A DNA stretch of 64,000 bases from Octopus vulgaris (lineage: Eukaryota), in contig OX597830.1 of assembly GCA_951406725.2 (NCBI GenBank), positions 29,078,001 through 29,142,000 on the forward strand, read 5' to 3'. The notes below the pieces were generated by a model. The model saw nothing but the letters and a program-made list of their open reading frames with translations. It ran no database searches and was not told the DNA's origin. Position 1 is the stretch's first letter; the number at the start of each line of letters is the position of its first letter. Shown here in pieces: positions 11,555-36,433 of this stretch. A program made the position numbers and the translations under genes.

Positions 11555-12170
11555 ACAGTTCTATATTTAAGAGATGAGGGATTATGTACAATATTTACAT
11601 TATTTACATTTGAGGGATATTTGTCTCATCTTGTTTGTTGTCAACACAACGTTTCGGTTGTCATCAGGTGTTTTGGGGGAAATTTCGAACCTGAGTTCTC
11701 ATTCCTAAGGTATTTTTCGATGTTATTGTTGTTGTTGTTGTTGTTATTTTTATTATTATTATTATTATTATTATTATTATTATTATTATTATTATTATTA
11801 TTATTATTATTATTATTATTATTATTATTATTATTATTATTATTATTATTATTATCATTATCATTATTATTATTATCATTATTATTATTATTATTATTAT
11901 TATTATTATTATTATTATTATTATTATTATTATTATTATTATTATTATTATTATTCGATTCCAGGCAGTGACCTGAACAACAACAGCAACAACTACAACA
12001 ACAACAACAACAACAACGACACCAACAACAACGATAATAATAATAACATCTAGAAACACCTTAGGAATGAGAACCCAGGTTGGTGAAGGCTGAAGGGTAT
12101 ATAACGTTGTGTTAACAAGAAACAAGATGAGGACAAATATCCGACAAGTGTAAATAATGTAAATAATATA
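11555..12170. mobile_element. Penelope-like (pLTR-derived) inverted-repeat element with internal (ATT)n and hammerhead remnant
   Basis: Inverted arms ~11593-11745 and ~11976-12164; 12-bp flanking direct repeat TAATCTAGAAAT (11543-11554, 12171-12182); hammerhead core in the left arm. Confidence 0.75.
11646..11672 (-). ncRNA. Minimal type-I hammerhead ribozyme, stem II collapsed
   Basis: Minus strand ACAC-CUGAUGA-caacc-GAAA-CG-UU-GUGU: stem I pairs, palindromic ACGU stem III, stem II cannot form. Confidence 0.6.
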
Positions 12171-12682
12171 TAATCTAGAAATGTCAGATTTTAAAGGCAA
12201 GAAAATGAATGTCGATATAGTGTCAGAAAACTGCTTTTCGATATTTGTACCGCTATTTACATTCTAACACCAAATCCAACCATGGTCAACTTTTCAACCG
12301 TGATATTCAACCATCCGAAACTGATACCGAAAATACAGGAGTAGATGTATAGGATTATTTCCAGCCCTGATGTTTGCTGCGTTTGGGCCGAGATTACTAT
12401 GGGAAAGTTAGTGGTTAATTATGCTCTTTGTCTCTGACAATCATAACTATCTCTTTCTCCCTGTACATACATACATATATATATATATATATATATATAT
12501 ATATATATATATATATATATGTTAATAGTTATCGCCAAGCTAATATGGCAGTCCATAGATATAGGATGAAAGCTGCCGTTGATTAGTTCCAGGAGGAACT
12601 AATAGCTAGCTATGACACACGAACCTGTGTCCATTAAGACCTTCGAACAGAGGTCAGCTGCTTCCCCTTGCTGATCAGGCAT

Positions 12683-12723
12683 CTGAAGACATGTTTCAGG
12701 GTATTTGCCCTTTATCAATGCAG
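12683..12723 (-). ncRNA. Degenerate type-I hammerhead ribozyme
   Basis: Minus strand cugca-UUGAUAA-aggg caaaua cccu-GAAA-CAUG-UC-uucag: two core substitutions, perfect 4-bp stem II, palindromic stem III, GUC site. Confidence 0.6.
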
Positions 12724-13425
12724 AGTAGCCAAACCCAGTAGGCGTCGCTACTGACCACCTGTTCGAAGGATTATTTACCTAAATTCAGTGGAATACATCC
12801 ACTGGTTTTCAAAAGTAGAAATATTATTATTTCTAAGTCTCTATAAAGGAGACTATGCTTAAACAGTCACATATAGTACATGAAGCAAAAAAATGTCAAT
12901 TAATAAAAAATATGAACGTTTATAAGTTAGAATAGACATAAAACAATGTTTTATAGACTGCCTATTTACTTCTGTCACGTCTGTACCTATATACTACCAC
13001 TTCATCACATTATATGGTTTCTTTCCAATATTTTCAGTCTATTGTCGTGCTTGTAATTGTATAATTGTAATCAAAATACTGTATTTTATGTTTTTTTACT
13101 ATAAAAGCTTTATAATATATTTTCAAAGTCACATTCGTTTACATAGTAATTTAACGTTTGTATTATCTGATACATAGGTTGTGCTTTCTCAAGGCGAACA
13201 GAAAACTTTTCAGGATTCCGACAGTATATCCACTTTAATTACGAAATACAGTTGTTTGCCTGTTAACTATGCTGTCAGTGATTTTCAGTCATCGTTTTTT
13301 CCTTTATTTATTTATCTTTTTTTTTTGTTAATACTAGTATAGGCTAAATCTGTATTAGCATGCACTTGAGAGTGGTTAAAAGACAATGCCGAAGTTGGAT
13401 GATTTTCGTCAGTAACTGAGATATA

Positions 13426-33348: not shown

Positions 33349-33678
33349 GTGAAACTGTGATATTAATAATACATAGAACGTTCTGTGGACAAAAGTACAG
33401 ATGTATAGGTATTGGGTGTGTTTATTGGTGAAGAGTATCTTTAGGTGGAAGGCAATGAACATTTTTCTTTATGTATGAACATCTAACGACATTATCAGGC
33501 AACAGCTTTTAAACTTGCAACACTGTTCTTCTACCCCTATTGATATATTTATATTGAAATATTTATTGTCTGAAAGTGCCCACCTTCTTGCTTTCTCTCG
33601 TTTTCCATGTATACATACATTCATATTTTCTAGTTCATACAAACGTTATTGTATCTAATATATCTAATTTGTTTGTGC

Positions 33679-33725
33679 GCCACAATTTGTTTCTAGATCC
33701 GGCAGGCTTGACCCTTCATATAGCC
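33679..33725 (-). ncRNA. Heavily degenerate hammerhead-like remnant
   Basis: Minus strand cuauAUGA-aGGGUC..GAUCUa-GAAA-CAAAUUG-U; core disrupted. Confidence 0.3.
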
Positions 33726-36394
33726 ATTCCTTACCCATTGGAATCGATCTCCAGTAGTGATATCGGAGTCTCAGTTTGAATCTTTTGAGCAATACTAAAT
33801 GTCCTCTATACTGAGAATCTTTAGATCTTTTCTGTGGACTATATATATATATATATATATATATATATATATATATATATATATATATATATATTATACA
33901 TATATACACACGCGCACACTGACGCAAACATATATTACAAAATATATGCATATATATATATATATATATATATATATATATATATATATATATTTATATA
34001 TCTATGTATAAGCGCATATAAGCCCACACACACATATACATGATGCACTGGCATACACATGTATATATAAACATCTATATATGTGTATTGTATATATGAT
34101 CGTTCGTATACGTAAAATTACTTCTATTTCATTCCGTTGTGCTTAATAGAGTGCGTGCTTAAAGGTATGTATGTATGTGTGGATGGATGGATATATGTAT
34201 CTATGTAAAGATGTTCGTATGTACGTATATGTATGTACACGACAATTTGCGATTTGTCAGCGTGAGAGACTATGTCGACTGGTGTTTATGTGAATTGTGA
34301 GCGTATGCACGCGTGAGTGCGAATTAATCAGGCTTTATAAATTAAAGATATACAATAATATCTTTACACCCCTTCCTGAGACTGTTTCTAATATACAAGA
34401 AGAAAGTATACACGTGATACGCAAATGTCAACAGCTTTAGATATCAGAGATTTTATGAGCTGTAGTTTGTTGTTGATATACATTTATTTAACAGCTGAGT
34501 AAATTTGAAAGTGTAGATTTCGAAATTTGATCCCCACATCCCAGATTAAGAACGAATGTCCGTGCACCTAACGAACCACGTGAAAACACATTTTACATGA
34601 TGTGCACACATGTAGAGGGTTTTATGTAGGGCCATATATATATATATTTATACAGGGAAAGAGAGGGCGAGAGAGAGAGATAGACAGAGAGGCAGAAAGA
34701 AGACGAGTGAGAAAGTGTGAGTTTGTGTATGTGTGAGATAGATAGAAAGAGAATGAGAGAAAGACAGAGAGAGAGAGAGAAAGAGAATTGAATATAGTTG
34801 AAGAGAAGGGTTGAAACGCAATGCGTATATAATTATAATATATGCACGTGTGGCTTTCTCATCGTATTTCTGTACGTATATATATATATATATATATATA
34901 TATATATATATATATACATATATATATATACCGTATATGTATGTATGTATGTATGTATATGCAATATATGCATACACATTGCATATATTATAAAATATAA
35001 CATATATTTGTATATATTTGTGTTCATATACACATATACATAAACAGGAAAACACATATTGCACAGCTGAGTTTTCAAGCTAAAGGAAAAGCTTTCATTA
35101 TTTTAATTAAAAGCGCCATATATATATAAATATATATATACATAAATATATATATATATACATATATATATATATATATACATAAATATATATATGTGTG
35201 TGTATATATATATATATATATATATATATATATATATACGTACATTCATGTATATATATGTATATATAAAAATATATATGTAGATATTTACATATATATA
35301 TATATCTACATATATATATATGTTTATATATATATAATCGTTTATATCTCCTATAATTTTCGATAAATATACATAGATGTCTTTAGTGCATTGGTTTGTT
35401 TATGTCATTACAACCAAGGCAACGCTGGATACATCCTCTTTAACTTACGTAAGTTTAGGTATATATTCATATATGCGTCTCTTTGTGTGTGTGTTTATCG
35501 GAATACACACCGGCACACAAGCATACGTATGTAAAGGATATACTTTAACTTCATGCTTCACAGGTCGCAATGCTTGATCAAGCCCTGCGACCGGCAGAAC
35601 ATTTAATCACAGTATAACCCTGTTTTTGATAATTTTGATCTTTGCTCCCTTATCGTATGTGTACGTGTTCGTTTTATCTAGCATCGTTTTAACAGCGTTT
35701 GTATTTATGTGGATAGTGAAAGTTAATTCGTCATGAAATAATTTTTGCAATGATTCCTTCCCGAAGAAAATCGTTAGTGAAGTCAGTATTAACATTTGTA
35801 GTATTCAAAGAGCTAAAAAAAAATCTAATCAGCAATAATTACGTATGAATAGATTATCAAATGTTACTCAATCCCTATTGTTTGAATGATTCCGGTAAAG
35901 CAGAAGCATAAACACTTGCGTGTTTTGACGCTATCTTGACAGTTACAAGGCATGTATTGTTTCAACGTATTTCGAAAAATATTAAAAAGCTAATCATAAA
36001 TAAACAGATGTATTAGATTGCTGACAAGATATTGTATGAAAATAGAATAGTTCCGAAAATACTAGAGCTGGCCACTTGCATGTCGTAATAAAAACAATAA
36101 CTAGAAATTTACGATGTCAGATAATCTATGGAAGATGTATTATTGTCCTTTTAAATTCTGAAAAGTTTACTCTACTTCCCAGCATACAAATTGATGTAGA
36201 TTGTAAACATGTAGTGTAAACATTCAATATGGTCATTATCTTTGCACGTCTTGCAGCATTGCACAAGGAATATATTTTGTTCTACAAAGTATTTTGCATA
36301 CGTTTCTTGCAACAGGGAAAATTCGATTTGCTTGGCGGTACATACGTTATTTATACATGAAAGTGTAGCGCCTGTCAGCTGAGCATTTTTATTA

Positions 36395-36433
36395 TTGACT
36401 GATGAACGTCTTCGGACTGGAAACATGTCTGAA
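36395..36433 (+). ncRNA. Near-intact minimal type-I hammerhead ribozyme
   Basis: UUGA-CUGAUGA-A-C-GUC-UUCG-GAC-U-G-GAAA-CAUG-UC-UGAA: intact core, cUUCGg-capped stem II, palindromic ACAUGU stem III, GUC site; stem I 3/4 paired. Confidence 0.65.

Follow-up and report, generated by a model that had tools for sequence, protein, structure and literature searches.

The minimal hammerhead ribozymes (min-HHRs) of Penelope-like elements (PLEs), described in 2014, have an extra nucleotide after A9, a G10.1-C11.1 pair, a helix I of 4 to 5 bp, and a palindromic stem III (PMC4209133). They belong to diverse families of mainly dispersed single motifs, with pairs on opposite strands as well, and the genomes of some animals each contain approximately 2,000 to 9,000 of them; in schistosomes, a covariant U3-A8 core is found in about 1,300 (PMC4209133). 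Thousands more hammerhead motifs have been found in a coral (PMC7229834). The min-HHRs form no stable helix III and are active only as dimers that the palindrome holds together; in vitro, single motifs did not cut, and dimers and trimers cut weakly (PMC4209133). The function of hammerheads in PLEs has been called unclear, and PLE insertions are marked by an inverted, 5'-truncated partner and an extension of 30 to 40 bp at one end (PMC8557442). Here, we examined hammerhead motifs in a window of 64,000 nucleotides from Octopus vulgaris (assembly GCA_951406725.2, contig OX597830.1, positions 29,078,001 to 29,142,000), for which a preliminary description had flagged six such motifs, numbered here by position: motif 1 at 11646, motif 2 at 12683, motif 3 at 23824, motif 4 at 25637, motif 5 at 33679, and motif 6 at 36395.

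Short interspersed elements (SINEs) and retrozymes provide further points of comparison. The tRNA-derived SINEs of octopus were reportedly described by Ohshima and Okada in 1994. SINE-like elements of schistosomes join an RNA polymerase III (Pol III) promoter to a hammerhead (PMC6765202), and octopus genomes are rich in both PLEs and SINEs (PMC8967140, PMC13282606). A search of the literature, whose coverage omits most subscription papers and all repeat databases, returned no report of octopus min-HHRs or of a PLE-driven SINE with a tRNA head. These motifs or the family described below may already be included in the species lists of PMC4209133 or the repeat library of PMC13282606.

It has been known since 2014 that heterogeneous min-HHRs derived from PLEs, most of them broken, are scattered through animal genomes, and the motifs of this window repeat that picture. 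Most of them are decayed min-HHRs, probably remnants of PLE 3' ends from several unrelated families, and motif 1 belongs to a dispersed, high-copy family without open reading frames (ORFs) that was likely copied in trans by PLE enzymes. What the window adds is the size and build of this family.

Minimal hammerhead motifs and their chance expectation

All six flagged coordinates carry GAAA together with a palindrome or near-palindrome. The preliminary description had given all six one topology, which we could partly confirm: four motifs are credible, motif 3 is decayed, motif 5 is unsupported, and one further site had been overlooked. The core CUGANGA is exact in three of the six (11667 and 25710 on the minus strand and 36399 on the plus strand), and either this core or its U3-A8 variant occurs with GAAA in motifs 1, 2, 4, and 6 and in a seventh candidate. 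A palindromic stem III followed by H17 is present in five motifs. Motif 5 carries a nonpalindromic 9-mer. Helix I has 5 bp in motif 1, 4 bp in motif 4, five of six pairs in motif 2, and four of six in motif 6. The window copies vary in helix II, which is missing from motif 1, ends in an A-U closing pair in motif 2, is a GGCC stem with an unpaired C in motif 4, and has 3 bp in motif 6. Self-duplex energies of the palindromes range from -1.7 to -11.1 kcal/mol.

Motif 1 (11643 to 11672, minus strand) has an exact core at 11667, the palindrome ACGU, and U17 at 11648; five unpaired nucleotides replace its helix II, a deletion of 16 nt relative to its family. Motif 2 (12682 to 12724, minus strand) has the U3-A8 variant UUGAUAA at 12718, a 4-bp helix II, the palindrome ACAUGU, and C17 at 12688. 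Around it lies a long imperfect hairpin of 130 nt (12640 to 12769, minus strand; -56.5 kcal/mol, z = -4.9, reached by 0 of 200 shuffles), for which an extended helix I and the inverted ends of a small element are both conceivable. Motif 4 (25637 to 25714, minus strand) combines an exact core at 25710 with the extra A, the palindrome ACAUAUGU, A17 at 25641, and a helix I made of G-C pairs, and it is the sole motif that passes our strictest descriptor. Its helix II is long (-12.2 kcal/mol), far longer than in published PLE min-HHRs (PMC4209133), from which motif 2 also departs by its hairpin. Motif 6 (36393 to 36435, plus strand) has an exact core at 36399, the extra A, ACAUGU, C17 at 36429, and a UUCG loop on its helix II.

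The remaining two flagged motifs are weaker. Motif 3 (23826 to 23873, minus strand) has the core CCGAUGA at 23867, in which U4 is changed, and the palindrome ACAGCUGU. Its helix I has zero pairs in the register proposed earlier and six perfect pairs when shifted by 4 nt, a shift that likely reflects the loss of one short repeated unit. Motif 5 (33677 to 33723, minus strand) was rejected as a hammerhead: its core, CUAUAUGA, is off by three mismatches or by one insertion and one substitution, position 17 is G, stem III is not palindromic, and helix I has at most two pairs. The seventh candidate (19861 to 19917, plus strand) combines an exact core with a 9-bp helix II, GAAAC, and a 4-bp helix I; its stem III is nonpalindromic and its fold z is -2.35.

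Some additional sites are weaker again. At 49993 on the plus strand there is an exact core with a 4-bp helix I. A possible further decayed min-HHR at 52272 to 52305 on the minus strand (UUGAUGA, GAAACGUC) has no clear helices; it appeared in a loose tier only and was left out of the motif count, as were the loose-tier sites at 63381 and 1889, both on the minus strand. A match at 14740 on the minus strand, also from a loose tier, was rejected, with its core at least 47 nt off and no helices. Next to motif 3, short direct repeats of 77 to 84% identity at 23787 to 23823 and 24244 to 24284 stand in swapped order about 450 bp apart; they may be chance.

To set the chance expectation, a descriptor taken from the published motif was applied to 300 local dinucleotide shuffles and to the reversed and complemented window. 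An exact core with GAAA, a palindrome, and H occurs at five sites against a shuffle mean of 0.29, and an exact core with a palindrome and at least four of six helix I pairs occurs at four sites against 0.033. The strict tier, with 4 bp in both helices I and II, contains one site (25637) against 0.00. None of the 300 shuffles reached any of these counts, and the exact-core tiers were empty in the reversed and complemented window. The excess over dinucleotide-shuffled sequence, on which the preliminary description had made its case depend, is thus borne out. When one core mismatch was allowed, there were nine sites against a mean of 3.0 (reached by one of 300 shuffles) but eight in the reversed window, so this tier, to which motif 3 belongs, is uninformative and carries little weight. 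The tiers that pick up motif 3 and the seventh site were defined post hoc, with the sites already seen; they were reached by 4 of 150 and 0 of 150 shuffles, respectively. The motifs are enriched over chance, and decay is evident in the window copies.

We liken the window motifs to PLE min-HHRs because the extra nucleotide, helix I, the palindrome, and the U3-A8 variant are published hallmarks of that group (PMC4209133), with which they also share dispersed single copies. This enrichment and these hallmarks uphold the PLE-type identity proposed earlier, motif 5 excepted.

Among animal DNA in metagenomes, motifs of this general kind are common. A general min-HHR pattern matched 119 metagenome loci in 2 of 64 parts scanned, from which about 5,500 stretches are estimated, and one locus in viral contigs, which has no helix I. 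In 93 of the 122 matches (120 loci), the pattern is followed by a 4- or 6-nt palindrome, which it demanded only in part, and helix I has at least four pairs in 31. No A/B-box pattern was found within 500 nt upstream of the 122 metagenome motifs, many of whose loci are short. In locus L050, a frame of 227 residues, with relatives among PLE-type endonucleases, has the motif at its end, and in L030 the motif is 3 kb from a GIY-YIG frame. As a separate observation, about 20 metagenome loci share one min-HHR family (L003, L005, L008, and L010 among them, together with L050, where the motif overlaps the end of the endonuclease frame). The motif-1 family pattern had no matches in viral, metagenome, or prokaryote contigs, and the motif-2 pattern had none in viral contigs. 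Rfam returned no hammerhead among the 150 of 435 window matches listed or among the 10 for 11500 to 13000, a blank that is uninformative because Rfam also missed four of four intact control motifs.

A dispersed repeat family around motif 1

Motif 1 lies in a high-copy, dispersed short repeat (copy 1, 11552 to 11743, minus strand), recognized by contig depth, whose 3' end, at 11552, is sharp and lies 96 nt beyond the predicted cut. Directly 5' of copy 1 is an (AAT)n microsatellite (11744 to 11955, minus strand), delimited by the tandem-repeat listing and by loose contig ends. A second copy (11954 to 12175, plus strand) stands inverted and head-to-head with the first, with 73% identity over 155 to 161 nt (E = 1e-20 in a self-comparison of the window). 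Comparison of flanks bore out the earlier statement that the flanks of the six motifs are unrelated and belong to several families. That picture was incomplete in one respect: this inverted copy, 300 bp from 11646, had been overlooked. From copy 2, the last 28 nt at the 3' end are missing, as are the core and the 3' arm of helix II; the loop and the 5' arm of that helix are retained. These last are what copy 1 lacks, so the deletions in the inverted pair at the motif-1 locus are complementary. The insertion pattern of Penelope-type elements is thus present here, with 5' truncation, an inverted partner, and a 28-nt extension on copy 1 only; it was not seen for motifs 2 to 6.

Copy 2 is truncated on its 5' side at a B-box-like 9-mer, TTCGATTCC (11954 to 11962, plus strand), which is followed by 13 nt and then by an (AAC)n tract. 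The 9-mer, which heads the 22 nt lying 5' of this tract, matches the tRNA B box minus its first two bases (B box according to PMC8969392). Shuffles give an expectation of 2.6 occurrences of the B-box-like pattern per 128 kb. The pattern was found in one of the two copies, and the A box is absent at the truncated copy 2. In octopus sequences, the motif-1 repeat may occur with a full tRNA-like head. Elsewhere in the window, two tRNA-type SINE heads that have A-box and B-box-like motifs lie at 48730 to 48800 and 48965 to 49040 (plus strand), and the same 9-mer recurs in the head at 48780.

The motif-1 stretch is matched wholly or partly, as contigs, by 20 of 24 listed sequencing runs, which span five organism labels and 10 studies. 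Contigs of four runs, three of them DNA runs with 13,298 to 19,292 contigs each, were placed on 11250 to 11735. In run X1, summed depth is 1.4 to 6.1 million over the family against 46 over the flank, with a dip at the deletion. The ratio of family to flank is about 31,000 to 132,000 in X1, 35,000 to 136,000 in X4 (organism B), and 41,000 to 143,000 in X13 (organism E), although summed contig depth is not a true copy number and is inflated by overlapping contigs. We read the copy number of the motif-1 family as tens of thousands. The depth ratios, all above 30,000, compare with the 2,000 to 9,000 or so motifs per genome published for PLE min-HHRs (PMC4209133). The abundance claimed in the preliminary description therefore holds for this one family of the set. 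Run X10, which we guess to be RNA, yielded 1,975 family contigs and no flank contigs; low-level DNA could look alike.

Loose contig ends allowed the common form of the family to be reconstructed. In each DNA run, ends at 11657 (97 to 115 contigs) and 11676 (168 to 350 contigs) supply 16 nt that are absent from the window copy, and a T-to-C change at 11658 also enters the reconstruction. The resulting family form is a full min-HHR, with the core, the extra A, GAAA, ACGU, U17, and a 5-bp helix I; its helix II has 5 bp (GGCUG/CAGCC) closed by G10.1-C11.1. A C-to-U change in the palindrome accounts for about 15% of family depth. The motif-1 family is dispersed and common to three organisms, and the hammerhead is intact in its common form.

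The two ends of the family differ in character. Beyond 11552, 129 to 177 contigs per DNA run enter unrelated sequence (agreement, 0.39 to 0.40), and loose ends in the three DNA runs revealed no common poly(A) or repeat tail past the 3' end. This heterogeneity indicates that the copies are dispersed and share no tail. On the 5' side, at 11727, 201 to 250 contigs in each of the three DNA runs read (ATT)n, that is, (AAT)n on the element strand, which suggests that the tract is likely internal to the family. Several motifs had earlier been described as lodged beside (TA)n or (ATT)n, but their median distance of 140 bp does not differ significantly from the 314 bp of random places (P ~ 0.09), and the (AAT)n at 11646 is likely part of the element and not an insertion target. 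With a microsatellite and a short, ORF-less head 5' of its ribozyme, the motif-1 family fits the earlier description of the elements as nonautonomous. The other motifs may be remnants of autonomous PLEs that lost their 5' part. In organism B, one contig spans the flank into the element end, so this insertion is likely shared with that organism; an empty site was not seen. Contigs that join the two family ends are few (e.g., 11725 to 11556, with a depth of 81 in X1).

Origin and spread of the motifs

We consider it likely that PLE enzymes spread the motif-1 family by the following route. Family RNA would arise from a Pol III-type head or by read-through, and family RNAs might then pair through their palindromes, building a shared helix III, and be cut after position 17. 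Because no motif in the window has a same-strand partner, dimers in cis are impossible there; dimers of family transcripts in trans are possible. A PLE reverse transcriptase and GIY-YIG endonuclease would recognize the 3' end, resembling a pseudo-long terminal repeat (pLTR), in trans and insert copies that are 5' truncated and sometimes inverted. Neutral decay would follow insertion and would have cost motifs 1 and 3 and copy 2 their ability to cut. The ribozyme itself may be a mere passenger of the 3' recognition sequence. Motifs 2 to 6 may be nonautonomous elements or the truncated ends of autonomous PLEs, with which they are equally compatible.

Several results weigh against an origin from PLEs or limit its reach. 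Hammerhead cleavage is predicted, family transcription is putative, and the insertion pattern and the type of the motifs are the sole basis for the putative link of the window families to PLEs. We measured copy number and family structure for one of the six motifs, with the inflation of summed depth already noted. Pfam detected no PLE coding remnant in the 149 of 212 nonrepetitive segments covered, and two profiles (87 and 121 proteins), which represent two PLE lineages only, found nothing, with a best E of 0.14 against 0.45 in a reversed control. Frameshift-tolerant scores of eight regions upstream of the motifs were all inside the background. Minimum-free-energy folds of monomers were no better than shuffles for five of the six motifs (z = 0.40 to -1.25). 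A covariance model (R1) of 20 metagenome motifs, too narrow with its fixed GGC/GCC helix II and 6-nt palindrome, found only motif 6 (18.2 bits, E = 0.005) and motif 1 (E = 0.097) and missed motifs 2, 3, 4, and 5; its pair counts provide no evidence of covariation, its rows having been chosen for pairing. In having no linked PLE ORF within the window, these motifs differ from the published PLE min-HHRs (PMC4209133). The preliminary description had likewise seen no PLE reverse transcriptase or GIY-YIG ORF, and all three kinds of search agree with it.

A broken GIY-YIG domain that we suspected by eye upstream of motif 6 was rejected: of 318 window tiles, 15% scored at least as well with one profile and 74% with the other, and hidden Markov model and tblastn searches were also blank there. 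The reverse transcriptase remnant at 38508 to 38921 belongs to another, larger non-LTR type (LTR, long terminal repeat) and not to PLEs. It is part of a broken non-LTR reverse transcriptase (37730 to 38921, minus strand) in which an internal deletion fuses the core to a KPD-type motif. Its relatives, of 550 to 1,140 residues, are 42 to 51% identical, and it may be Dong/R4-like.

Within the PLE reading, we tentatively propose, at somewhat less than even confidence, that the motif-1 family is a PLE-driven SINE, with a Pol III head of tRNA origin, an (AAY)n tract in its interior, a PLE-type 3' end carrying the min-HHR, and tens of thousands of dispersed copies across this animal group. If the tRNA-like head holds genome-wide, this would be a SINE that uses the machinery of PLEs and not that of long interspersed elements (LINEs). 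Its transcripts could then supply dimer partners in trans, and, for a genome of this size, few known ribozyme families would be more abundant. The copy number would also allow a test of whether the hammerhead is kept by selection in young copies or carried along in PLE-type transposition. The Sm-alpha and Sj-alpha elements of Schistosoma offer a parallel as short, noncoding repeats that combine a type-I hammerhead with a promoter of Pol III type (PMC6765202). They differ in that their hammerhead is canonical and often tandem, whereas that of the motif-1 family is minimal, near the 3' end, and dispersed, and in that the promoter suggested for the family is a single B-box-like 9-mer.

It is possible, but rather unlikely, that all of the motifs, the motif-1 family included, are 5'-truncated solo pLTRs of autonomous PLEs, and that the B-box head is an unrelated scrap of a tRNA SINE whose (AAC)n abuts copy 2. 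PLEs do insert with 5' truncation, and most animal min-HHRs have been read as truncated PLEs (PMC4209133). The restriction of the head to one copy with no A box left, and the presence of further tRNA-type heads in the window, are in keeping with such a scrap. Yet (AAT)n and not coding sequence lies 5' of the family in three organisms, the 3' flank is heterogeneous, a B-box-like 9-mer would seldom be expected by chance, and depth ratios of this size are SINE-like.

That size would also suit a conventional tRNA-derived SINE moved by LINEs, in whose spread a captured hammerhead stayed idle. The motif-1 family has the B-box-like head, the internal microsatellite, and the length and abundance of such an element, and in one octopus genome SINEs account for about 12% (PMC13282606). 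Like the tRNA-derived SINEs of octopus, it is a very abundant short repeat in microsatellite-rich DNA, with a putative tRNA-type head (PMC8967140, PMC13282606); PMC13282606 makes no mention of hammerheads. We nevertheless consider LINE-driven movement improbable. The poly(A) or simple-repeat 3' tail of a SINE is missing from the sharp 3' end of the family, the inverted partner and one-sided extension follow the PLE pattern, and the ribozyme lies about 95 nt from the 3' end, the position it has in PLEs.

Still less probable is a spread of the motifs as small circular RNAs of tandem non-LTR retrozymes. Animal retrozymes are also nonautonomous and hammerhead bearing, and PLEs are proposed to move them (PMC7229834; 10.64898/2026.07.22.740005). 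Type-I hammerheads with a palindromic stem III are found among them in a mussel (PMC7229834), solo copies of retrozymes also occur, and retrozymes as such have been proposed to originate from pLTRs (10.64898/2026.07.22.740005). The few end-joining contigs of the motif-1 family would fit retrozymes too, but they are tiny against depths in the millions. Retrozymes consist of tandem units of approximately 170 to 400 nt, each with a canonical hammerhead, and form circular RNAs (PMC7229834; 10.64898/2026.07.22.740005). In the window, by contrast, there is no such tandem unit, the motifs are minimal, and none belongs to a tandem array in the 150 of 159 tandem rows listed. Motifs 2 to 6 have no second copy by self-comparison, and motif 1 has an inverted partner. 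The term retrozyme, used in the preliminary description, does not apply here in its strict sense.

Chance matches in AT-rich DNA are the least probable source, for although the one-mismatch tier is nearly as full in the reversed window, motif 5 fits nothing, and Rfam listed no hammerhead, the exact-core tiers were never reached by shuffles, the family of motif 1 has an intact hammerhead, and Rfam is blind to intact controls too; chance is refuted for motif 1 and for the set and is the likeliest reading for motif 5 alone.

Other repeats in the window

The window is animal intergenic or intronic DNA with 33% G+C. It contains 159 microsatellite or tandem-repeat rows, and short interspersed repeats are also dense across it. 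No tRNA gene was found in the 64 kb, and the transposon frames that Pfam detected are all broken.

A decayed Tc1-type DNA transposon occupies 13423 to 14941, with inverted ends of about 220 bp at 70% identity and a Tc3 transposase helix-turn-helix match (E = 1.5e-12). Mariner-like transposase frames were seen by eye at 28095 to 28747 (minus strand), where Pfam had no match at E = 0.05. Two short repeat families are abundant. One, with internal tandem units of about 185 to 217 bp that are 68 to 89% alike, occurs at 18295 to 18856, 32945 to 33368, 39332 to 39545, and 41175 to 41702. The other occurs at 26943 to 27334, 42640 to 42987, 44810 to 45221, 45467 to 45872, and 49300 to 49710.

Two copies of a further repeat (25909 to 25971, plus strand, and 53570 to 53633, minus strand) are 83% identical over 64 bp and share a GGCC hairpin with GAAAC. 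A hammerhead candidate at 25943 on the plus strand was rejected, since it is the hairpin and GAAAC of this different repeat and the core is absent. The copy at 25909 to 25971 has a TATCAAAG tandem tail between (TA)n tracts, and the element looks like a LINE 3' end. Finally, a (CA)n(TA)n(TG)n microsatellite at 54013 to 54127 forms a perfect hairpin that attracts spurious microRNA matches in Rfam.

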